A stretch of 63,803 nt of DNA, filler included, from Parasitella parasitica NRRL 2501 (taxonomy: Eukaryota; Fungi; Mucoromycota): assembly GCA_025201805.1 (NCBI GenBank). It is 14 parts of 14 records of this genome, joined end to end, with 100 filler letters (N's around TTAATTAATTAA, not from the genome) between each part and the next. Parts side by side here need not be neighbours in the genome. Positions count along the whole stretch, not along the records: positions 14,065 to 15,934 come from MU619270.1; 13 more parts are not named here. One strand, written 5' to 3'. Below are positions 3,050 to 63,803 of the stretch, piece by piece; position 1 is the first letter of the stretch, and the number at the start of each line of letters is the position of its first letter. The position numbers and the translations under genes were made by a program. Below the pieces are notes generated by a model that was not told where the DNA came from, searched no databases, and was given only the letters and a program-made list of their open reading frames with translations.

Positions 3050-4610
3050 AAAATCAGTTTGGTGTACTGTCCAAAATGCTTTTGGTGCATCTGCATAATA
3101 AATTTCGTGCAAAAATCAAAATGTATTTGATGCACTTTTAGTTCTTTTCTTACCACAAATATTAGCTTATTTTATGGATCAGTTTATTTTCGAAGATGGG
3201 AAAGAAAATCTCTACGATGAGCAGGGTGAATCAGTTGCTGTTCTCGCTATGGAAGTAGACGACGAACAATATCCTTTGGATAATATAACCAACTTCAGTG
3301 ACTATACGAACCTGAAGCCACCAGAAAAGCCGATCAAGAAAATCAAAGAAGATGGTTTGAAACAAGAAGGTGGAGATGCAGAACTCGAGGAACCCAAGGG
3401 AACACGGTATCGATCATACAAGAGCGAAGATAAAGCCAAGTTTTTCTTTCTCGTATACGAGAAGCAAATGAGCATCCGTGCAGCCTGCAAAATGGTCAAA
3501 ATCCCTCCCAGCACTGGCCAAAACTGGTACAAGAAGGGTGTGGAAAGTTTGGAGAACGACGAAGAGCTTTCTCACAAAAAAGTGGCCAAATCGTTTGGAA
3601 GACCACCAAAACTTTGTGAGGAGCAGAAAGAGGCTTTGATCAGCATGGTGGATGCCAAACCAGATTTAGTCTTGGAAGAAATGATGGATCAACTGAATGC
3701 TCAATTTATGGGTCTTGAAATTCGAAAGTCTGCTTTGCACGAGTCCTTGACAGAGAAATGCCAATTTTCGCTTACAAGGGCTCATTTCCACTCGGTATAG
3801 CGAAATAGTCCTGAAAAGATTGAAGAAAGATGCAATTGGGTCAAGCAATGGCAAGAAACTGACATGGATTTTTCAAGTAATTGCGTATTTATTGATGAGG
3901 CTGCATTCCATATCAACATGAAGTGCAACTATGCATGGTCGGTTAAAGGAGAGCGATCTGTTGTAAAGGTTCCCAAGACCCGAACAAAAACCACGACAAT
4001 TATCGGGGCCATAACACCCTTTGGCGTGATTAATGTTAAGGTAAAGCTTCCGAAAGTTTATGCAGCACCTTCGAAAAAAAGAAAAGCTACAGGTGGCCCT
4101 ATTCAGACTCAAGCAGATAAGGGAGGAACTGTAACTGGACATACTTCAATTTTGTCGCTAGCACCTTGGATGTGATGGATGAATATAAGGAGTTTGAAGG
4201 CCATTATTTGATAATGGATAATGCACCTATCCACAAAAACAAAGACATACAATTGTATATTGAAAGCAGAGGGTATAGATGTGTCTATATCCAACCTTAT
4301 TCCCCTGAGCTTAACCCAATCGAGCAATTTTGGTCCATTGTGAAAAGCAAACTTAAAAGAGTGGTACTTTTGGAAGAAGAAACACTGTCCACTAGAATTT
4401 CTGATGCTTGTAACAAGGTGATGATCAGCGATCTAGAAGGATTTTGCTGATACTCTGCTTTCAAGTGGGATGACTGTTTAGAAAAAAATGTAACATTAAT
4501 AAACCTACAAATTTGGTGCACAATGCACCAAACACCATTTTGATATTTGCACGAAATTTATTTTGCAGATGCACCAAAAGCATTTTGGACAGTGCACCAA
4601 ACTGCTTTTT
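3050..4610 (+). mobile_element. Tc1/IS630-type DNA transposon with ~85-bp inverted repeats
   Basis: 3050-3134 is the reverse complement of 4524-4610. Iterated (T)GGTGCA(CC) motifs lie at both ends, and the repeats enclose a transposase. Confidence 0.85.
3174..4500 (+). pseudogene. Tc1/IS630 DD34E transposase, disrupted
   Basis: HTH/GRP region, then FIDEAAF, MDNAPIH and YSPELNPIE with 34 residues between the second D and E. In-frame stops at 3798-3800 and 4448-4450, and a frameshift near 4140. Confidence 0.92.
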
Positions 4611-9379: not shown

Positions 9380-12025
9380 GTTTTATTTGAATAATTTCTC
9401 ATTCTGATAAATCATACACTCTTCATCCATGTCCCGCCATGCTGATATCGCTCCATTTGCCCAGTGGTTGCGTACTTATTTTACAAACTGTCATCCTGAA
9501 GGCCTTCCAACGTTCCCTCGGAGTAATACATGCATTGATTACATTTTTGGTCATTGTTCACTTGCTCCTTGGTTGGCCAACAGTCAGTTGTTGTATATGC
9601 CTAGTAGGTGGACCGATCACTGTCTTTTGACTGTTGATTTACTTCCTGCTAGTGCTAGCATTGGTCCTGGTAGTTGGCGGTTCAACCCTACACTACTTGA
9701 AGATGAAAGATTTATTGCGTTGTTAAATGCCACAGTGTCATTGTTCTTCTCCGATACTGCTGATAGTGGGTCTAGGGGTAGTGGGTCTAAGGGTGTAAAT
9801 ACTAGTCATGGTGGTAGTGGCGACCCTGAAGGCACTGTTGCTAGATGGGAATCCTTCAAGTTGTTGCTCAAGTGCTGTGCACAAAAGTACACTCGAGGCA
9901 TGAAGTCGCGGTTCAAGAACAAAGTCTTTACCTTACAACTGGAACGTATTCGGGCTCTCTCATCTAATTCTGTATCGGGTGTTCAGACTGGTGATGCTTC
10001 AATAGTAGGTCAAGCTGAAAGAGTGTCTCCTGCTTCAGGTGATTCTGAGCAGGTCAGGCAGCTTGAAGTTTTGATTGAGAATCAGATACAGAAAGAGACT
10101 AGTCAGAATATGCTTCGCTCTGCTACTCGTTGGCATGAACAGGGTGAGCGTAATAACAAGTATTTCTACCGTGTGATCAAGAAACGGCAGTCTCAACAGA
10201 CTATCCAATCCTTAAAGTGCTCTACTACTGGGGATATCTTGGTGGATGCAGCAGCTATCAACAGGGAGGCTCAAGGTTTCTACCAAAAGCTATACACTCC
10301 TGATGCTGTGGATGCTGAAGCCATCGATACTCTCCTAGGGAATATTCCTCCTGAAGTGAGTCTATCATCTTCGGATGGGGATAAGCTGACGGAGATGCCA
10401 AGTCGTGATGTTGTCTACCTTTTGCTCGCTCACTCTCCCAAGTCTAAAAGTCCTGGTCTTGATGGTCTACCTTTTGAATTGTATCAATATCTTGCTGGTG
10501 TCTCTTCTGCTTTTCTTGACTTGCTTGTGGATGTGTTGGGCGGTGCCTTTGATGGTGTGTTTCCTCCGTCGTGGCAGCAAACTAGAATGGTACTCTTGTT
10601 CAAGAAGGGTGACCCGCAGTTGCTGATCAACTGGAGACCTCTGTCCTTTATTAACAGTGATGCCAAGTTATTTACAAAGCTCATTGCTAATCGTATGAAC
10701 AAGGTCTTGCCAAAGTTGATCAATCCTTATCAAACTGGGTTTCTTCCTCATCGTCTGATCTCTGATAATGGCTGGCTAAATCAATTGCTGATGTCTCACT
10801 TACGTACTGTCGCTCCAGATTTGCCTCAAGTTGCTGTCTTATTAGATCAAGAAAAGGCTTATGACCGCGTTCACCCCGAGTATCTTCGTCTTGTTTTGCT
10901 GCGGTTTGGTTTCCCTGCTATTTTGGTATCTTGCTTGTCGTCTTTGTTCTTTGGAACAAAGATTAATGTTTCTATCAATGGTTGGCTTGGTGCTCCTGTT
11001 CCTCAGTTGAGAGGTCTTCGTCCGGGTGATCCATTGTCTCCATTACTGTTCAATTTGGCGTTTGAGCCACTTCTTCGTTCTCTGCTTGCTTGTCCTGGTC
11101 TCTCTGGTGTCACCCTCTCGCCTGTCAGTATCCCACAGAAATGGAAGCCTTCACCGGTGGAAGTTCGTGTGGATCTTGGTGATGGTTCCTGCAATCGACA
11201 ATTGGACTATGTTAGTCGTACTGGTGCTCCGTCTCCTGTCAAGATTCTAAGCTATGCTGATGATCTGGAAGTGTTCTTGTCGTCCCCAGATGAGTGGCCA
11301 GTCTTGTTGTCTCTATTGGATCTATATAGTCGAGCGTCTAACGCGAAGGTCAATCTTAGCAAGACTGTGCTGGTGTCTCTTTCTGGTAGGCCGCATTCTG
11401 CTTATGTTGCTTTGGCGCATGCTGCTGGTATCCAGTGGCATGATGCTCTCTCAAGTGATGCGGTCCGATACTTGGGTTATCCCTTGTATCATACTGATAG
11501 TCAACTGAGTGATTTTCTAACTGACTTATTGGTAAAAGTCCAAAGGCACAGTAACTTGTTGAAGCAAAGAAATCTCTCCATTCGGGGAGCTGGACTTGTG
11601 GCTAACTCGTTGCTGTTGTCCAAGGTCTATCATGTGTTGCGTGTTGTTCCTGGTGGCCCTGCTACTGAGTCGTGGGTGATGGCTCTCAAGAAAGTAGTTA
11701 GGGAGTATTTGGTGTCGTTTCGTCCTGGTGTTGCTTGGTCGACCTTGTGTCTTCCTCGCAAGTTTGGTGGTGTTGGTTTGGTGGATATAGCAGATCAGAG
11801 CTTGGCTCTGCATCTTATCTATTTGCAACGCTTGTTGCGTCCACCTTCTCATTCTAATTTTGTCACTGCTTGGTTGGTTTACGCCTTCCAAGTATACACT
11901 GGTCATAAATCTGTCTTGCCTTGGTTCTCTTTTCCAGACAAGTTCAAATTTCGTGTATCTTCTGTGCCTGTCCTTAAACATCTTAGCAATCTTCTCCTGA
12001 TAAAACTACCCAAGCTAGTTCCTTC
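9380..12025 (+). mobile_element. Non-LTR retrotransposon ORF2 (L1/Tx1-like, APE endonuclease + RT), truncated
   Basis: Motifs IDYIF, TDH, WRFN, GERNNKYF, PGLDGL, NWRPLS, DQEKAYD, GLRPGDPLSP (the Q of QGD is replaced by P), YADD, RYLG and GGVG. The 3' end is replaced by an LTR-like insert at 12026. Confidence 0.95.
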
Positions 12026-12810
12026 TGTGAAATACATTCACCATGATGATCTGCATTCCACTTCTAGATTCATCCAGTTACCTTAAATTGATATAAACTA
12101 CATATGCGCACAGATAATAAGATGTGCAATACAGATTTATACTATATAAGATATAAGCTAGAGATGGCACCATTAAGATGGATGACGCTATAGACTGATA
12201 CTTATATCTCGACACGAGCCTTAGACATTTACTAGATTTAGTATATGCTACGAGCTTATGCTATATAAGATCTATGCTTCAGATGCGTATTCCCAGTTTC
12301 TAGATACGCACTACAAGACATATACTTATATCCATAATACTAGCTACAGATACATCATGTACTACAGACTTGTACAATATGTGCAATGCTATAGATATGC
12401 TTATGACATGCTATAGACGTGCTACATATACCGATATATGCTAAGATGAATACAAAGTGATATACACTCAGACATGTACTATTAATATAGACTGGATAAG
12501 ACTATACAAGGAATGATATACGCTTATGGATCGATATTAATAATCTTCGCATAGAAGATTGATCAGGGTACTACCTCGGGTAAAGTCTATCTCCTCACTC
12601 AAATAGATTTAAGTTATCTTGAGTCTGCTGATATGTAGGTTAGCACAAAGTTAAGATGCTAGTTACGCAGTATTGTCGTACATGTTAAATTGCGAGAATA
12701 GAACATTTATCCACAGTTTAAGTATATAAAGGTTCATCTACCTGGCCAGTAGATGAACCAGAGCTTTATACACCTGTCGATTTGATAATAAAACCTATAC
12801 CTTATCAAGT
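12026..12810 (+). mobile_element. LTR-like sequence; second near-identical partial copy at 13739-13964
   Basis: Starts TGTGAAATAC. TATATAAAG at ~12723 and AATAAA at ~12787. The first ~225 bp recur at 13739. The 3' boundary is uncertain. Confidence 0.65.
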
Positions 12811-13280: not shown

Positions 13281-14066
13281 GTTGAGATGGCTCATTTTTT
13301 AATTATATAATATAACTCCTGAGACATTTCAATTTTTTTTGTGCTTGTAGTAACATTTGCTACCAAATATTTGTTGAGATATTGCAAAGATCGCATCTGT
13401 TTTGAGTAAAAAAAGTTTATTTATGCTCGCACGATCATACTAATGTTCATTTGAGAGCAAAAAGTGACGAAGAAGTACCTACTTTTAACCAAAGTGTTGT
13501 TGAAGATGATAAAAAAAAAGCCGCTGGTAATAATAATGCTAGCACCAGTAGCAATACACTTGAATAAAATATATTTTTGTTTGCACATGCCTTGCTTTCA
13601 AATGTTGAGACGACCTTGTAGCTGTGCTTTTCTATTGGCTTTTTACTGCATGCTTAGCGCAAACATTGCATATTGTGATGACCGAATGCATATTTTAGCT
13701 TCTTTGTTAGCTTTTCCTTGGTCTTTTTCTTTTGTTTTTGTGAAATACATTCACCATGATGATCTGCATTCCACTTCTAGATTCATCCAGTTACCTTAAA
13801 TTGATATAAACTACATATGCGCACAGATAATAAGATGTGCAATACAGATTTATACTATATAAGATATAAGCTAGAGACGGCACCATTAGGATGGATGACG
13901 CTATAGACTGATACTTATATCTTGACACAAGCCTTAGACATTTACTAGATTTAGTATATGCTACNNNNNNNNNNNNNNNNNNNNNNNNNNNNNNNNNNNN
14001 NNNNNNNNTTAATTAATTAANNNNNNNNNNNNNNNNNNNNNNNNNNNNNNNNNNNNNNNNNNNNTA

Positions 14067-14547
14067 CAGTAGTCGCTCGATTTAAGGCTACTTTTTTTGC
14101 AAGCTTTTTTTAGCCTTATATCGAACATAGCCTTATATCGTGCATGTGACTATTACTTTTAAAACAGTCACATGTATAGTTGATACCGTACTACAGCTAT
14201 TAGATTAATTTGACACACGTCCAGTCTAATCCATTTACTTCTTTATTTTTAAAAAAGCATATTTTGGCAAACAATTATACTATGAGCATTAATCAACAAT
14301 CAAGAGAGCGTCTCACTATCGAGCCAAAGTACGAAATCTGTATGCATAATGCTCAGTTTCCAACACAACCCAAATTTAAATACCGTCAATTTACTGTAAA
14401 ATAAGGCTAAAATTTCGAAAATTTTCAGCCTTATATCGAATAAGGCTAATAAGGCTAACTCCCTGCTTAAAAAAAAATTCATAAAGAATTGTAGCCTTAC
14501 ATCGTGAATAGCCTTATATCGAACAGCCTTAAATCGAGCGGCTACTG
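14067..14547. mobile_element. MITE (Tc1/pogo-type) with TA TSD, inserted in a Fanzor gene
   Basis: TA|CAGTAGTCGCTCGATTTAAGGCT ... AGCCTTAAATCGAGCGGCTACTG|TA, with internal AGCCTTATATCG repeats. Confidence 0.92.
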
Positions 14548-15934
14548 TATAGTATTCGATTGAGGACAAGCGACGTATGTCAGTACCACCATGATAAGAG
14601 ACGAAAGGATCCCGTCTTCCCGGGTCTACAGTGCATGGACGGAAATGCTTGTTCACCTCTTCGCTTGAAAAATCATCTAACTCTAGACAGATATTGTCTT
14701 CTGGAGATGATGGAAGCACTCTTCTAGCAAATAGAACTCTGCACGTATAGCCATCAGTGTACAATCCGTTAAGAAACATTCTTCCTTTTTCTTCAGGCAA
14801 TGCTAGAAGCTTTTCACAACTATATTTTTTTTTTATCAGCAGCTTGATTCATAGATATGTGTATTAGCAGTATGTACCTTTGAATACCCAGCTTTTTGAA
14901 AGCAAAAGCTTGATAGAAGCACCTTTGTTGATGATCAAAAGAGGATTCATTGGCTTGCTTCTTTTGCTTGGCCTCTCGAAAAATTCCGGTCAGGTTCTGG
15001 GCATCAATCTTTATGAACCGCCAGTGCAATGAGGGATTTGGGAATAAACTAAAACGTCTTGGAAGCGGGGGCTTCGTTGAGTCGGCCTTGTCCTTTTGAG
15101 CAGCTTGGGTCCTGTATATATCATCGTATTTGTTGAGAATATACCGTAATGCCGGTAAAATTTTGAAGGGTTCATTGTTTAAGCTTTCTTTAGTCAGTGG
15201 AAGCGTGGACATGCGATTTTTGACCTCTAAAATCAAAGGATTTAAGAAACTTGTAAGATTACTGGCCACATCCGGATCAAATAGGGCAAGAATATCAACG
15301 GATACAGATGAAGGTTGGGAATGTGTAAGCACTTGATCGTATACGTGATTATATACCAAATTCTTGATACAGCCGATCTTCGCATCATAATTTATGTAAT
15401 TTTAGTATAACAATTTGAGAAATTGAACATGTATATTGAAGTGCTTGTTATTATATATCGTTACTTACGGGGTACTCTGTCTTCAGTGTATATATGAAGT
15501 AGTTACATATGATGTTTTCAAAGTTTTCAATATAGTAGTTGTTGTATGTTGTTGCGACAGTCTCGCATGCAGTTGAAAAAGATTGTCCATAATTCTTTAA
15601 TCCATTTTCTGAAACAAACAAGCTACCATTTGTAGTAGCAGACAAGTTAACAAAAGAGCTCGCAAGTTGATCCACATCTAGGTTCTGGCCTGCAGGTCGT
15701 TCCTTTTTCGTATCTTTGTAAGCCTGCAGAGTTGGCTTTACTTTATCTGAGCTGCCCCTAATAACTCTTGAAATAGTATACCAAAAATTTTGATCAAAGA
15801 AGTCATTCGTCAGCTTGGTTGGATGTTGCAGAATAAAATGATTTACAAATAGTTGAGCTTTGAACAAGACTTCACGGACAAAGCTTGATATGTCCTTGAC
15901 TTTTTTTAAAGCATTGGCTTTGTTTGGAGTATCA
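14548..15934 (-). pseudogene. Fanzor1 (eukaryotic TnpB, RNA-guided RuvC nuclease), N-terminal to RuvC-I part, with introns
   Basis: FKAQLFVNHFIL, RFSLFP..HWRFIKID, LYTDGYTCRVLF and RuvC-I-like TVDPGRRD, then RLSSIEYY. GT-AG introns start near 15468 and 14878. Interrupted by a MITE; the start is lost in a gap. Confidence 0.8.
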
Positions 15935-16359
15935 NNNNNNNNNNNNNNNNNNNNNNNNNNNNNNNNNNNNNNNNNNNNTTAATTAATTAANNNNNNNNNN
16001 NNNNNNNNNNNNNNNNNNNNNNNNNNNNNNNNNNTTTGTCTTCTTTGTGCGGTGCCTCGGTGGTAAGTCATATCAAAGTTCCCAGCCGTTGGCCATCCCT
16101 CAAGATCAAACCAATATCCCGGTATTCATGCCGCTCATTTGCTACTACCACACTTTCTTTTTTCCCCTTTTTATCTTTCGTTAGTGCACTGATAAGGGTT
16201 TTTGCAACTGTTTCTTTTAATTTTCTGGAATTCTAGGCTTATGCTCATATCGAGTGCCCATTGAATTCATGTAATATATTAATAAAAACAACCATTAAAC
16301 TGAGCTAGCCCGGCAACCAATTTTTTACCTAATTTGGAACATCCACTTTTTGTAAGAAA

Positions 16360-17658
16360 TTGTATAACACTTCATCCATCCATCTTGATAAAAGCTTCAT
16401 CATTGCATCCTTCGAGAAAATTAACTCATCTACCTCGTTGCCTTCAGATTCTCATCTTTCTGGCTTGAAACGGCCTATTTCGTCTCGATCTCCACCTTTA
16501 TTTGCGTTTGATCTCGTACAACAAATAAAGTCCAAAAGATCCTCAACAACATTTGGAGATCCCAAGCCCGCTCCTCCTGCCCGAATGAATCCATCAACAC
16601 CAGATATGATTGATTTCGGTGTCACTGCCCTCCCGTCTGCCTCTTCTGAGGGCGACTTGAACATTGCGTCCTTCGTTCTCGAAGTTCGCAATCGTTTGAG
16701 TCGTCTAGAGTCTGCTCATGCTGAGATCGCTCGGCTAAGAGCAGCTTTAGCAGAATCAGAGTCTGCTCGTCAGGCTCTTGAAGCTCAAATTTCTCGTCTG
16801 TCTGCTCCTTCTGCTGCACCAGCTCCACCAAAAGCCGCCTCTTTTGCTACTGTTGTTGCTGCTGCTGCTGCTCCTACCTCTGTTTCTGTCCCTGCTCTTT
16901 CTGTTCCTGCTGCTGTTGCTGGCAAAAAGAGAAAAGCGAAATCTGCTGCTCCTCCGCCCTCCATCAAAAAGGCTGCTGCCACTGTAAGTCGTTTGTTTGG
17001 CCCGCACTCTGATATGCCATCGGAATATCAGTTTGTCTATATGGGTATTGCCCGTCGTCGCCCTCTTCAGGAGATCCGTCGCACTTTACAAGGTATCAAG
17101 ATCAACAATTCCCGTGTTCTTGATATCCAGTACCCTATCCCACATGTTGTCTCCTTTCTCGTACACCAAGATTATGTATACACTTTCACCAGTGCAATGC
17201 ATTTGAAAGGTCGTGGCTGCTCTCCTCTTCTTGACTTTGATCCTTGTGATCCCAAAAATCTTTTGGATCCAAAGTATGACTCTCTCTCTCCCTCTCTTCG
17301 TGCCGAAAAAGCATTAGAGATTGAAAATCTTCGTTGTCTCCGTGCGCTGTCGTTTGTCCGTCGCTCTGTTCGTCTTTCTGTTGCTCGTTCTTTCCTCCAC
17401 TATGAAAGAATCACCCAAAAACAATTCGATGCGATTGTAGCAGAAGAATCGTCTTTGCGTGCTGCCGCTGCTCCTCCTCCTGCTCCATCTGCCACTGCTG
17501 TTCAAGATCGCTTGGCCAAGAAACAACGCCTCAGCTATCTGCGCAACCTGCTGTACTTTGATTCAGCCACTGCCAAATCTTTGGCATATACTGAATCCCC
17601 TGCTCTCTCTCCTTCTGCTGTTACTGACACAGAAATGCCAGAAATCTCTGGTGTTTGA
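16360..17658 (+). CDS. LINE ORF1 (gag-like; coiled coil + RRM-like domain), likely ATG at 16585
   Basis: Coiled coil, SFATVV, then YQFVYM..RR..EIRRTL..IKINNSRVLDIQYP...FLVHQDY, which resembles Mucorales LINE ORF1. Followed by a pyrimidine-rich spacer. Confidence 0.75.
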   Translation: MYNTSSIHLDKSFIIASFEKINSSTSLPSDSHLSGLKRPISSRSPPLFAFDLVQQIKSKRSSTTFGDPKPAPPARMNPSTPDMIDFGVTALPSASSEGDLNIASFVLEVRNRLSRLESAHAEIARLRAALAESESARQALEAQISRLSAPSAAPAPPKAASFATVVAAAAAPTSVSVPALSVPAAVAGKKRKAKSAAPPPSIKKAAATVSRLFGPHSDMPSEYQFVYMGIARRRPLQEIRRTLQGIKINNSRVLDIQYPIPHVVSFLVHQDYVYTFTSAMHLKGRGCSPLLDFDPCDPKNLLDPKYDSLSPSLRAEKALEIENLRCLRALSFVRRSVRLSVARSFLHYERITQKQFDAIVAEESSLRAAAAPPPAPSATAVQDRLAKKQRLSYLRNLLYFDSATAKSLAYTESPALSPSAVTDTEMPEISGV

Positions 17659-27485: not shown

Positions 27486-29656
27486 TTTTCAGTTAGGCGG
27501 TTGATGATGATGCTTAATTGTTTTGCATGTAGTTCCATATCATCCGAATGTGTTATACAATAAACATCATCAATATATGTCAAACAAAAGGGTAAATCAC
27601 CTAGGATATCGTCGAGTAAGCGACTCCAGGCGCTGCCAATAAAAGTAATCCCGTATGGACAGGAGGCAAAGCAGTAAGCAGTATTGCGGTGCTGGAAGCT
27701 GGTTTTGACCTGATCTGACACATTTAGGGGTAGTCTCAGGTACGCGGTCGTAACGTCAATACAAGAATAGATTGCAGCACCTGTTGCTTGTTTGAAGATC
27801 TCGGAAGGCAATTTTATGCTATAATTGTCAAGACTCGAGGGCAGTAGAATACTGTTGAGTTCTCGAACGTCCAAGCATGTCCGCCAGGACATAGTACCGT
27901 CACCCTTCCTTTTTGGGGCAAATGTTACAGGATTATTCCAAGGGCTAGGAGGGGCTTTTTTAATGATGCCCTTTTCCAACCAATCTTTCACTGTTTCGTC
28001 AAATACGGGCATTAACTTCTCAGCAATTTTGTATTGACGGCGATTTCTAGTTTCGTTTGGTATCGTATCAAGCTTTATTAGAGCCAGAGGATGAGGACAT
28101 AGTTCTCTAACATCAATAGCTTGATTTCGGTTAATGGCAGGTTCAATGGCTTTCATCAGACGTGCATGCTCACTCTCCGTACCAGCGTTCGATATATTAG
28201 GTACGTATTTTTCATCGACAACGGCATCATCATACAGGATTTTATTATCATCCCAATTAAAGGCGACGCCTGCTAATGTAATGCCCAGTTTTGAGAAGAT
28301 ATCACACCCGAAGAGCGAGTGTTTATCATTTCCTAATTCCTTCATGATGAAGAAAGAATGATGCACATCACGACCATTATATTTGATATGGATGTCGTCC
28401 GTTTTACCTAATAACAGTATATTCTCATTATTTGCCAGTGTTATGTTTACATCGGGGCAAGGGTGGATGGTAATATCGTATTTATTACACAAGTGAGAAG
28501 ACAGGATGGAGATATCAGAGCCTGAATCGATCAGAGCTAGTTACCTATGTATGCCCAACAATAAGAAAGGAGATAATGGAGAATATGGATTTTGATTTAG
28601 TACGTCATCATTTGTATCGACCATTTGTCTTCTCTTGGTAGTACTGATTAGCATACTACACAAAAGATTGCCACATTTACCATTATTATCAGATGATGGG
28701 ACATCGAGGTCATTCATTGTGCTTTCATCGAGGAATTCAGCCATGTCATCGTCGTCAGTAAGAGGATTGATCTGACTCAGGATTTTCATAATATTCTGAG
28801 CGCAGTCAGTCAAATCCTGTTCGTTCACAGGATGCATATTGCTCTGCCTAGCTGTACGCACCATGTTGACACCCGCTGTTTTGGCTAAAGTGTATGGATT
28901 GTTATGGTGGGGATTAGTCAAGTGTTCGGTGAAAGACTTGCGTCTCATTGCAAACGTACCCGTGCGATTCATGTTGACAGGCTGGTCTATGCCCTTTGCA
29001 GCGTTTTGTCGTGCATTTTGAAAAGCAATGCGTTCTGGACAGAAATGACCCGGGTAGAACTTGACTTTTTCACAGTGAGTACACAGTGATCCGGTCTGAG
29101 GTGGGGCAGCAGTGTTATGTCCCTTGCGATCTATTCGCTTGAAGGGGGGCGTCTTTGCCTCATCATTAGAAGCGGCTGGTCCGACCGCCAGATTGTCAGA
29201 GCGTCCACGCTTTCTATCATTGGCGCTCTTGGTCTGTTTTTCTACCTCGACTTGGTATCGTTCTAACAGATCCCGATGCACGGAGGAAGAATGAACTTCC
29301 AAGAGTTCCATGATCGACTGCAAGTTTTCATGAGGTAAAATAGCGTCGCTATTGACGGGAGGGCTAATACTACCTAGAGCTGCCCGCATCGTGGGTAGCT
29401 TTGCTTTCAAATATGTTTTCACATACTCCTTTAATGCAGCGAAACACATGATTGCCATAAAGACAGAATCAGGTACTTGGGCTTTTGCCATCAGGATGAT
29501 AAAGCGTTGAAGGAATTCCATCAATGGTTCGTCAAACCTTTGGCGCAAGCTAATCAACTCTGAAATATAGTCGAATCTAGTGTTTGTCTCCATATATTTT
29601 TTGAGCAGTTTTGCTTTCATGTCATTCCAGGATCTGTAGGCCCTGCGATTTTGTTT
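27486..29656 (-). mobile_element. Ty3/Gypsy LTR retrotransposon internal region (gag, protease, RT)
   Basis: Gag with LRQ..DE...F and CxxC..H.C. Protease LIDSGS. RT motifs SPWNNPV, WRTCLDVRELN, PYGI and YIDD. Order PR-RT, with one in-frame TAA at 28541-28543. Confidence 0.92.
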
Positions 29657-31641: not shown

Positions 31642-32259
31642 CGCATATTAGAAGATTAGCTGCTGCATCAATTTTCTATAATTAATATGTTGTTTAAGCT
31701 TTGAGTTGAACTTTAGTATTCGCAAACAAACAACGCCTATCGTTAAATGACCAAAAAAACCAGGGCGTAGCAAATAATTTTGATATTTAATGCGACAGTA
31801 ACTTACCAATACATCGACCATTTAGATTGAATTTGGAGCTGTCATTTTGAATTGATTGAGTTTTATCTGCTTTTATTATTGCATTCGTAAGCAATAGTAA
31901 TATTAAAGGTTTCGTAAAAAGAGGAGAAGAGAAAAATTGAAAATAAAAACAGTTTACATCATGGTATAATAGTAATCTACTGTAGGTCACATAACCAAAT
32001 CTTTGTAGCCAGGGAAACGTTTGCCACATTAGTTGCTGTGCATACTCACTAGCTGCACTAAATGAACGAATATAAAATGCACTGCACCAATGCTGACAAT
32101 AAACATGATGCTTTTCTTTTCGAGATGTATATCAATTTCATCTTTGTGTCAAAATACANNNNNNNNNNNNNNNNNNNNNNNNNNNNNNNNNNNNNNNNNN
32201 NNTTAATTAATTAANNNNNNNNNNNNNNNNNNNNNNNNNNNNNNNNNNNNNNNNNNNNA

Positions 32260-32433
32260 TTGAAGTGTAAAACTTGCAATATTTACTGGAATCGCGATGC
32301 CGTGGCCTCGAAGAACATGCTCACCATTGCCACATCAATTTGGTGTGGAAATGGCCGCCCCCAGGTCTTCAAGAGACATACCGCCACCTCCAATGTGGTT
32401 GTTGCTGCTCACTCCGGTGAGTCAGCAACTTAA
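32260..32433 (+). CDS. Fanzor/TnpB C-terminus (Zn-ribbon CxxC + RuvC-III), 5' part lost in gap
   Basis: Not in the ORF track. It reads LKCKTCNIYWNRDAVASKNMLTIA..IWCGNGRPQVFKR...*, and CxxC-x3-WNRD-x2-A-x2-N is the TnpB/Fanzor signature. Confidence 0.88.
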   Translation: MKCKTCNIYWNRDAVASKNMLTIATSIWCGNGRPQVFKRHTATSNVVVAAHSGESAT

Positions 32434-32480
32434 AGATATTGCAGGTAAAAAGCTGTAGCAATTCTGATTCTTCTGAAAGA
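32380..32480 (+). ncRNA. Candidate Fanzor omegaRNA scaffold
   Basis: Hairpins GCCAC/GTGGT, GTTGCTG-CTCAC-TCCG-GTGAG-T-CAGCAAC and ATTGC..GCAAT overlap the ORF 3' end, where Fanzor omegaRNAs typically lie. Boundaries are inferred. Confidence 0.5.
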
Positions 32481-32489
32481 TACTAACAT

Positions 32490-32578
32490 TGTCTCCATGT
32501 TCGTACTCATGTCCCATTTTCATCTTGTTGTCCCATTTTCGTATTCGTGACCCATTTTTGTAATCGTGTCCCAACTCA
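32490..32578. repeat. ~20-bp periodic GTCCCATTTT motif array
   Basis: Five degenerate copies just downstream of the Fanzor end. Confidence 0.7.
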
Positions 32579-32640
32579 ATTTGGAAATGACCAAAATTTA
32601 TTTTCATTGGCCCAACCTAGTTTCGTTAACTGTAGTAAAG

Positions 32641-32794
32641 TGTCACCTAAATCATCTCACATACAAATGAAAACTAAGGTAGCGATTGTTGTCGATTACT
32701 TGATTTTTTTCTTGTTGTCGACAACAAGAGAAAATTAAGGTGGTTGTCGCTAAACCGCTATCTCATTTGTATGTGAGACGATGGTTTAGGTGGC
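32641..32794. repeat. ~155-bp foldback (MITE-like hairpin)
   Basis: TGTCACCTAAATCATCTCACATACAAATGA pairs with TCATTTGTATGTGAGACGATGGTTTAGGTGGCA. Central perfect palindrome CTTGTTGTCGACAACAAG. Confidence 0.8.
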
Positions 32795-34478
32795 ATTGCT
32801 TTATTACTAGTAGTCGTTAAAGGCCTTGCTGAAGTCTTCTGGTAGGGTTGATTGTTACCGGTGTATGCATTGTTTCTCCACATCCAGAATGCATTGTAAC
32901 TAGTAGTATTCAATCCGTTGTACTTGAACGTTCGTGATACTCCTCCTATGAATTTTACATTGATGGGATATTCACCCTTATTAATATCTTTCTCCTCCCC
33001 CAATGCAATGATTTTATTAATTTATTATTATCATTTTCTTTGATCAAAACAAGTTGGATGAACCGAAAAAATGCACTTTTTTTTAGTTCTTTCATCTTTT
33101 TACAGTTTCTCCTTGTTAGGACACTTGCCAAAACATTTGGCAGAATGCTCGCTAATTCTAGTCATCAGTGTATCTTTTTCTACAATCTTTTTATGGTTTC
33201 TGAAAAAAAAAGTTCAAGTAAATGTTAAGTATTAGGGTTTCTGATAACAAATCCCCTATTTCTGATAAAAGCTGAGAAGTTTCTAAGGAAAGATGAGCCA
33301 CACCTGTTTTATCCTTTTACTATAAAGAAAGGTATACTTGTGGCATCAAAAATACTTACTTTGTAGAGATGTGTTGTGTACTAGAATTGATATTGACGTG
33401 GTATCATCTCCAGATAGATATTTTTTACAGCTTAAAAGCAAGAAATTTATCTTCATGTGTCGTTTTTGATTGATTTTCATAATCAAAAGTGCCCTGAAAA
33501 CAACAGAAATAGTATGCATTGGGAAAAAACCATATTATATATGATTTTGGTGCAATTTGAGCATGATTTTTTTTTCGATGCAAAATGACGGATTTTTTCG
33601 ATTTTTTCCTTGTATCCACACATCCAAAATCGTCGATTATGTGTTATCCTCGATTTTGACCACAAAAATGCAACTTTTTACTATAGCATATATTGGAGGA
33701 AAATGATCGTAAAAGACCGTTCTTTGGTCTGAAAGAGTGGAAATGCGCTCTGGTTAAACAAAATATTGACTTTTTCCTCTTGATCTGTTTTTGAGGTTTT
33801 CTCGACATAATTCCTTCCATGAACATACGGGGGTTATCAAAACGACACCATCGTGTAGAGCGTCCAAAAATACAGCCATTACCATAGACTGACAACCGTG
33901 GTATGAATAGTATCAGAAGATGATATCTTGCCTCAAAAGAGTAATTTGTTTTTCGAATTATCCAAATGGAGTTTCTGAAAGAACTTTTTTCTTCCTAATT
34001 TTGAATATGTTTAATCTCCGCTATCGAAGAAAAATGGTGCTTTTTTGAAGGAAGCATTAGCTTTGAGAAGCTATAGCTTACCCAATTCAAGCGAAATTTT
34101 TTTGCATCTAGTTTACCTAGATAATGTGCTTTTTGGGTTTTTAGTGGTAGTACTTGCATGCCTGTACCTGGCCTGACGATCTCACGCTCCAATTTTGAAA
34201 AATACTTTTCCGAAAAAAGTCAGAAAAGTCGCTACCTTCATTTGATTTCAAATTAAAAAATACAAAAACTTGCTCTAAACTATGCAATTATGTAATCAAA
34301 AGATGCCTTATAGTCTAATGCATTACTTTGCATTACTTGTTTTTGTGTTTGAGATCGCTAAANNNNNNNNNNNNNNNNNNNNNNNNNNNNNNNNNNNNNN
34401 NNNNNNTTAATTAATTAANNNNNNNNNNNNNNNNNNNNNNNNNNNNNNNNNNNNNNNNNNNNAATATCTATTTTAGTT

Positions 34479-61642: not shown

Positions 61643-63011
61643 TAAAGATCATTTGAAATGTTAATGCCTAGTTTTGTAATACGAAAACGGGTCCAACATG
61701 GCTCTCCATCCCTCTCCATCTCATGTAATGCACACGTTGTTATCCAGGTTAAATTGATGAACGTTGTAAAGTAGTGCTAAACGATGGTCGCTTTGATACG
61801 GATGTTTTATCTTTACTAACAAGTTGTATTAATGGGCTGATGGATGGATGGAATCGTACTCCATCCAATTATCTAATGTTGATGATCCATCCACACCAAA
61901 CATCGATTTGCCATACATCTTTTATTATTTCCAACTAATTATCCTTGCTCTGGGAGATGCTGTGGTATTGAATTGAGGTTTTTTGAGCCATGTTTACCCC
62001 CATGTATATGGTGAAATACGAACCATATTGGATTAGAGGAGGAACAAACTGTGGCCAGCAAATTTCATCTTCTTGTAATCAGTGCGGAGCTCAACACACT
62101 AACAATGTTTTACTGGGCAATATGATTCCGGTTTGGACGTCTTTACTTTCCATTTACAGATCAGTCTTTCAATAGGTCCGGTAGCTTCAGTTACTTGTGC
62201 AACTTGATGTAGTAAGTTACCAGTTGCAGTATTTAATCCTGTAAAAAATCAAAATGTTGCCGAAGCGAAGGCTGGAAATGTGGTAAATGCTCTCAGAGCC
62301 ACGCTTTATTTTTCATATATATAGTAATAATAAATTTGAATCCCTTTCTTCCCTATATCTTTCAATGCTGCTATGTGATAATATATAATTCAATTTTTTT
62401 TTTTTTTTTTNNNNNNNNNNNNNNNNNNNNNNNNNNNNNNNNNNNNNNNNNNNNTTAATTAATTAANNNNNNNNNNNNNNNNNNNNNNNNNNNNNNNNNN
62501 NNNNNNNNNNGTTGGTTTGGTAAAATTTATTGGTAGCAGAACCAAATTCTCAGTCATAGCACCATCTCATGTATTTGAGGCTGATATGTCAGTAGATGCT
62601 GGCAACATCGTTAATTTATAGCTTACCTTATTTCTTTCTGTAAATAAAAAAAACAGAAGATACGCTGTATGATTTTTTTTTTGTTTTTTATACGAGCTGA
62701 GGCTAATTATCACTGTCACCATTAGACCATCTTAAGATGCACATGTGCATAATACTTCCATTTAATAAAATTACAATTGATATATCTCGACAATGAGAGG
62801 TCGCCATGACTCCAAATTAACTCGTATATTCTTTAAATTACCTAAGCTATCACAACCAGTGCTTATATTGCAATCTAGTTACTTTGATAAGTTACGTTAA
62901 AAACCTTGATCATCTTGCTATGCACATTTGAACAGCTTAATGTGCCCATTTTTTTTTATTATGCCCATTTGTGCATATTATTATACCCATGGGAATACTA
63001 CTTCGGCCGTA

Positions 63012-63803
63012 GTGCGTAGCACTGGTGCTCCCGCTCCTGTCAAGATACTCAGCTATGCGGATGATTTAGAGGTGTTTTTGTCTTCCCCAGATGAGTGGCC
63101 AGTCTTGTTGTCTCTATTGGATGCAGTATGTATGGCCGAGCGTCTAACGCGAAGGTCAATCTTAGCAAGACTGTGCTGGTGTCTCTTTCTGGTAGGCCGC
63201 ATTCCGCTTGGGTTGCTTTGGCGCATGCTGCTGGTATCCAGTGGCATGATGCTCTCTCTTGTGGTGCGGTCGGATACTTGGGTTATCCCTTGTATCATAC
63301 TGATAGTCAACTGAGTGATTTTCTAAATGACTTATTAGTAAAGGTCCAAAGGCACTGCAACTTGTTGAAGCAAAGAAATCTCTCCATTCGGGGAGCTGTG
63401 TTGTGCCAGAAAGGCATGAGATTAAGCAATTATTAGATTGGTAATTCTTTGTATACAATGACAAGGAATAAGCTATTAATGTACAGTAGAACATGTAATA
63501 AACTTGGTATTACATACCAAGTTCAATGTTTAACCATGATGACAAATAGTGTTACAAGTAAGAGATATAATCTAGTATAAAAAGATGGCATTTTCTTATC
63601 AATAAAGTCATTAGTTTTTGTGTCTGATTTTATTTTTATAAAGTTATACATTTTTTTGAGCAGATCATATTTATATATCCTCTGCGCATAACAAGCTGAA
63701 CTTGTGGCTAACTCGTTGCTGTTGTCCAAGGTCTATCATGTGTTGCGTGTTGTTCCTGGTGGCCCTGCTACTGAGTCGTGGGTGATGGCTCTCAAGAAAG
63801 TAG
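63012..63803 (+). pseudogene. Second degenerate copy of the LINE RT region (matches ~11215-11700)
   Basis: Near-identical nucleotide sequence (GTCAAGAT..AGCTATGC.GATGAT), with a frameshift and an LTR insertion. Confidence 0.92.
63399..63693. mobile_element. 295-bp solo LTR with 5-bp TSD AGCTG
   Basis: AGCTG|TGTTGTGC...GCATAACA|AGCTG. The empty site GGGAGCTGGACTTG is seen in the copy at ~11586. Confidence 0.93.

Follow-up and report, generated by a model that had tools for sequence, protein, structure and literature searches.

The stretch of DNA analysed here (the window, 63,803 nt) consists of 17 short pieces of a fragmented fungal assembly separated by N linkers, and adjoining contigs in it have no physical linkage. 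Positions 14065-15934 are one entire contig of 1.87 kb. Three frames on its minus strand bear the motifs FSLFP..FIKID, TDG, and DPGRRD, as read in the initial annotation, and the Fanzor1 part of the contig corresponds to residues 126-540 of about 821 in the model of a sibling gene. The frames tile a profile of relatives colinearly and without overlap (120-259, 260-429, and 431-520 of 744, with E values of 1e-49 to 1e-74); the profile was built from close relatives, and the tiling demonstrates colinearity, not family identity. The contig starts inside the gene and ends at the far TA of an inserted inverted-repeat element (MITE), so the 3' half of the broken copy is absent from it, and the RuvC-II glutamate, zinc finger/TNB, and RuvC-III aspartate are not found there. 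Coordinates of all features are given in Table 1.

Joining of the three frames through GT-AG introns, as proposed in the initial annotation, holds for the intron at 14877-14820, but the intron starting at 15468 ends in AT. The acceptor AG at 15387 is present in the uninterrupted sibling L001 and in the covering contig in each of three sequencing runs (X1, X3, X15). Splicing to the in-frame AG nine nt downstream gives an open join of 412 codons without stop, with three residues lost. The insertion point of the MITE is 25 codons past the RuvC-I aspartate. The Fanzor frame continues for 82 codons into the MITE and then meets a stop, so no open frame through D-E-D exists in the broken copy. The insertion would take RuvC-II, the zinc finger, and RuvC-III out of frame, and no nuclease would be expected from this copy. 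The knock-out by insertion rests on one junction, and the same copy also has the altered splice acceptor. With high confidence, the locus is a broken and probably dead Fanzor1 gene with introns, from a Mucor flavus-like fungus, into which an unrelated inverted-repeat element of 481 bp has inserted. It is one of the copies of a multicopy family, and the intact copies are predicted to encode RNA-guided DNA nucleases.

Table 1. Features of the broken Fanzor1 copy, the inserted element, and the 3' end of a same-family copy, in window coordinates.
Feature	Position	Strand	Basis
Fanzor1 exon, truncated by contig end; residues 126-280 of sibling model	15469..15934	-	sibling alignment, profile
Intron, 82 nt; donor GT, acceptor AT (AG in siblings); alternative in-frame AG at 15379-15378	15387..15468	-	
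Fanzor1 exon bearing FSLFP..FIKID	14878..15386	-	homologues, profile
Canonical GT-AG intron, 58 nt; position shared with L001	14820..14877	-	
Fanzor1 exon interrupted at TA 14549-14548, after IEYY; includes TDG (WED) and the DPG of RuvC-I (Asp codon 14626-14624)	14548..14819	-	
Non-autonomous inverted-repeat element (MITE), 481 bp, between two TAs; TIRs 14067-14089 and 14525-14547; also has subterminal repeats	14067..14547	.	
Possible remnant of pogo/CENP-B-like transposase N-terminus	14282..14401	+	score 0.88, lead only
Last codons of same-family Fanzor1: zinc-finger end, RuvC-III NRD, stop; other contig, may be a different copy	32260..32433	+	95% to L001 over 118 nt
Two hairpins over last 17 codons, then 5-mer complementary to element end and TA; candidate 5' part of omegaRNA	32378..32444	+	
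Putative spliceosomal intron, 176 nt, containing subterminal repeats	32445..32620	+	
Element right end and TA; flank beyond would give the guide	32621..32634	+	

The TIRs of the inserted element are 23 nt long with one mismatch, and none of 100 shuffles gave two matches. An empty site running on into the next Fanzor codons was found in L001 and in three of the four sequencing runs, the fourth being an RNA run (X24) without reads on this stretch. The TA-flanked 481-bp MITE placed at IEYY by the initial annotation is supported by its TIRs and the empty site, with only one of its junctions assembled. Other flanks at 14067, 14549, and 14550 in runs X1 and X15 indicate multiple genomic copies of the MITE, and a longer form diverges at 14361 (runs X1 and X3). 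It is improbable that the junction is a MITE-bordered deletion, a rearrangement, or an assembly join between two repeats instead of a clean insertion. The contig does halt at the far TA of the MITE, and no contig from other runs spans the MITE-Fanzor junction among the 24 of 450 pieces listed, but an end at this TA is what a multicopy MITE would give. The break sits exactly on the TA of the empty site with the TIR start as the next base, and the two bases common to both repeats would be too few for overlap joining.

A 38-residue stretch of the MITE resembles CENP-B N-termini (CENP-B_N look-alikes at only 0.85-0.88); Pfam and homologue searches returned no match for it. The element is similar to MITEs of pogo/Tigger type in TA duplication, short TIRs, and this possible CENP-B-like remnant, but differs from them in that no pogo-type DDE domain is visible, and the assignment is a lead.

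Other elements were seen in the window. Pieces of a Tc1-like transposase (HTH and DDE_3 below the cut-off, with a stop in between) lie at 3102-4172, a LINE reverse transcriptase ORF at 9411-12083, and a second RT-like fragment at 62910-63311. A 229-nt direct repeat, 98% identical, follows the LINE ORF (12023-12251 and 13736-13964). The 441-codon ORF at 16333-17655, with no Pfam match, is presumably LINE ORF1. Gag and RT of an LTR retrotransposon were identified at 27488-29656, and an array of inverted 8/24-nt repeats at the beginning of a contig (18194-18412) is perhaps the end of a foldback element.

Uninterrupted copies were recognized outside the window. In a metagenome scan, 208 candidate stretches were reduced to two loci, L001 and L002, of which L002 was rejected as too distant to be a usable sibling. 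L001 is 97.3% identical to the window copy over 1390 nt and lacks the MITE. In its model, six exons are separated by five GT-AG introns and the frame stays open for 803 codons; D515, E732, and D777 are present, as are two CxxC pairs. The source contig comes from a low-coverage metagenome and breaks off about 18 codons before the stop. The model is 79% identical to an independently annotated 821-aa Mucor saturninus protein (P0049), with two 1-residue gaps. The expectation of intact siblings was therefore confirmed by an open gene with the full D-E-D triad. Between the window copy and L001 there are 18 synonymous and 10 non-synonymous changes (dN/dS 0.16; Fisher p 2.5e-6), so the family has been under purifying selection and the break in this copy is probably recent. 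Neutral decay was rejected as a measure of age, the coding differences being mostly synonymous.

In run X1 the uninterrupted gene is on one 2997-nt contig with a depth of 669, whereas alleles of a unique stretch nearby have a depth of about 32. This roughly 20-fold ratio is an indication of a multicopy family, and a rough one, depth not being copy number. A long lysine/arginine-rich insertion in RuvC (L001 2560-2680) is family-wide and is possibly a nuclear signal or the counterpart of the FRI domain. An N-terminal CxxC..H..C motif (L001 657-830), kept in relatives, is possibly a zinc knuckle; it is not described for SpuFz1 in the published passages covered. Many annotated relatives (P0001-P0022) skip exons, e.g., the TDG or RuvC-II exon, so that intact Fanzors are concealed by annotation.

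Fanzor1 membership comes via the relatives, because the window's own fragments gave no significant match in Pfam and PDB searches. All 22 matches of the middle exon (395 candidates) are Mucorales proteins, the best three being from Mucor flavus (94-95%), and a search with a full-length relative gave 1190 cluster representatives with E values of 0.001 or lower. The identity put forward in the initial annotation, and the profile search suggested as its check, gave a positive result at this level. Pfam Cas12f1-like_TNB (PF07282) was above the cut-off in five out of five full-length relatives (E 9e-8 for P0049). The family profile matched SpuFz1 (E 6e-14), and no other match fell below E 0.4. The bilobed Fanzor1 fold was recovered in Foldseek, where 7/7 significant matches (E < 0.001) of the P0049 AlphaFold model were SpuFz1, PpFz1, and GtFz1, with TM-scores of only 0.34-0.43. 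The model is of modest quality (mean pLDDT 65, 24 sequences), with RuvC poorly resolved and pLDDT under 50 in long stretches.

DPG, TDG, and a late glutamate are given as marks of Fanzor1 by Yoon 2023 (PMC10711439). The RuvC-I DPG and the TDG in WED are present in both the window copy and L001. The rearranged RuvC-II glutamate, about six residues ahead of the zinc finger, is E732 in L001 (first Cys 739), with the same arrangement in P0049, P0052, and P0053, and the zinc finger/TNB and RuvC-III aspartate were identified in L001 and at window 32260-32433. Protein P0061 (KAG2202060.1) shares 43% identity with the L001 model, and both are inside a 23-row group with support of 100 in a tree computed by a quick method from 29 chosen rows, no characterised Fanzor included. 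The genes represent a young, selected, multicopy Fanzor1 subfamily with L001 and Mucor saturninus KAG2205386.1 and KAG2193292.1 as full-length members.

The right end of the Fanzor element was mapped on the other contig to TA 32633-32634 by loose ends in run X15, behind 32634 in five contigs and behind 32635 in two, and bins 32649-32726 have zero depth in all four runs. Neither a left TIR nor a transposase of the Fanzor element was found in the window or L001. The last 60-130 bases of 32259-32634 are much deeper than the gene in other runs, suggesting many gene-less elements that share this end. Another high-copy repeat with many flanks (runs X1, X2, and X6) was seen at 33156-33400.

The two hairpins over the last 17 codons have a folding z of -5.9. 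Read in the +1 frame, their DNA encodes PPPPMWLLL, the C-terminal sequence of a 49%-identical relative (P0023); the DNA has been kept despite the frame shift, as expected of an RNA. In Rfam there were three matches, all below the gathering score. Eleven bases past the stop is a donor, which reads GTAAA in the window and GTAAG in contigs of three runs (X1, X2, X15). Only two of the 191 five-mers of the 3' region can pair with the element end and TA, and one of them is directly 5' of this donor. Two AGs occur from 32460 to the end, and a GT donor and a YAG acceptor (AG at 32620) are both present. When the donor is joined to the AG at 32620, an 81-nt RNA with three hairpins results, the last of which is a 7-bp stem closed by TA. 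Pair probabilities in this terminal stem are 0.64-1.0, compared with 0.01 in the unspliced RNA. The z of -5.2 for the joined RNA is not counted for splicing, as the two 5' hairpins already reach the above value without it. By eye, the same donor/acceptor layout is found in six published Mucorales elements; SPu-1 has a comparable terminal stem, but no spacer.

On these grounds it is about as likely as not that the omegaRNA is assembled by removal of the 176-nt intron. The scaffold would then be fused to the terminal bases of the element and TA, yielding an RNA of about 80 nt with three hairpins and, behind them, a guide supplied by the flank, and this would apply to Mucorales Fanzor1 generally. 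Under such splicing, the PpFz1 omegaRNA mapped in yeast would be the unspliced form. An unspliced omegaRNA that ends about 175 nt inside the element, with the natural guide fixed and element-encoded, is rather unlikely. The PpFz1 omegaRNA from yeast reads through the donor-like motif (PMC11423790); counted by eye, its counterpart in ROr-1 stops about 140 nt short of the element end. Bases 32439-32458 can form a third hairpin that would hide the donor, a fold compatible with two majority changes seen in other runs; the sequence is constant to at least 32545 in the collapsed X1 contig. Also, no branch-point match was found near acceptor 32620, although two of the five coding introns likewise have none. 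Against a fixed guide, no target for one was found in the window or L001, and the acceptor and complementary arm at the right end of six other elements would be left unexplained. Moreover, yeast may fail to splice a foreign intron.

It is similarly doubtful that, as in other Fanzors, a single long unspliced omegaRNA, here of about 270 nt, starts at the coding end, spans the right end, and extends into the flank. TIR and TSD are reported within Fanzor1 RNAs (PMC10711439), and omegaRNA lengths are given as 75 to 150 nt in Fz1 (PMC11423790) and about 200 nt in ApmFz (PMC10530073). However, the fold of 32500-32634 does not surpass that of shuffled sequences (z +0.7), and the weak pairing of the two arms in the unspliced fold is also unfavourable to such an RNA.

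If the guide is indeed assembled by splicing, the element end would be freed from RNA constraints, and a eukaryotic RNA-guided nuclease would need the host spliceosome for its guide. Screens in which genomic 3' ends were cloned into yeast or cell-free systems may then have used the wrong RNA for such enzymes, and for PpFz1 both the native scaffold and the TAM logic would deserve re-examination. The broken copy is of little weight itself; it points to intact subfamily members and a defined candidate scaffold.

Intact copies would reside in a TA-duplicating cut-and-paste transposon, likely mobilised by a TA-duplicating transposase in cis or in trans. The spliced mRNA would be translated into a protein of about 821 residues, and this protein would bind the omegaRNA from the element 3' end, with the guide taken from flanking DNA. 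The nuclease would cut the empty site left by excision, and repair would copy the element back, which is the TnpB/Fanzor model discussed by Saito 2023 (PMC10432273).

As a locus, the broken copy is ordinary: both Mucorales Fanzor1 and Fanzors with introns have been published, and Saito 2023 already lists one member of the clade as Fz1. The novelty of intact siblings as programmable nucleases was overstated in the initial annotation, the clade being already listed (KAG2202060.1), multi-exon Mucorales Fanzor1 described in 2013, and PpFz1 characterised. Bao and Jurka 2013 (PMC3627910) described 17 Fanzor1 families from three Mucorales, with 2-4 exons per family. Jiang 2023 (PMC10530073) reported intron gain in Fanzors and assayed an intron-containing algal Fanzor1, with no detectable cleavage. 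The supplementary table of Saito 2023 (PMC10432273) lists as Fz1 KAG2202060.1 (Mucor saturninus), of the same Mucorales clade as the L001 model, and CEG80323.1 (Rhizopus microsporus), which by eye resembles the sister group. The 79-98% identical subfamily was not found by accession or name in this table, of which 13 of 30 Rhizopus rows were covered. The literature searched contained no published biochemical test of the KAG2202060.1 clade, and no paper on the 79-98% subfamily or on a spliced omegaRNA, most subscription papers and some supplements lying outside the search. Spliced Fanzor guides are absent from the 12 of 39 passages covered of a 2026 review (PMC13565253).

SpuFz1 of Spizellomyces punctatus (PDB 8GKH, 9CEU-9CEZ; PMC10432273) is the best match in both sequence and fold, and has in common with the family DPG, the late glutamate, the zinc finger, and NRD; its element is TA-flanked, as is the right end mapped here. 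Its omegaRNA, as reported, ends in a stem that includes the TIR end and TA, and a similar stem is predicted here. It is, however, only about 15% identical and is a single-exon gene for 633-638 aa, compared with about 821 aa and five coding introns here, and the basic insertion in RuvC is a feature of the present family and not of SpuFz1. The SpuFz1 omegaRNA is also contiguous and 3' of the stop, whereas the candidate hairpins here overlap the coding end and a 176-nt spacer precedes the element end. PpFz1 from Parasitella parasitica (PDB 9CF0, 9CF1; Xu 2024, PMC11423790) is a characterised Mucorales Fanzor1. Together with ROr-1/-2/-3, PBl-1/-2, and MCi-1 (PMC11423790, PMC3627910), it resembles the family in being a multi-exon Mucorales Fanzor1 with mostly TA duplication and in having a donor-like motif in the omegaRNA region. 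PpFz1 differs in giving no sequence match, only a fold match at 13-14% identity. IStrons (group I intron and TnpB; reviewed in PMC13565253) likewise combine splicing and a guide RNA on one transposon transcript. In IStrons, however, the ribozyme cuts out the entire element, in competition with the guide, whereas here a spliceosomal intron in the guide precursor would build the guide.
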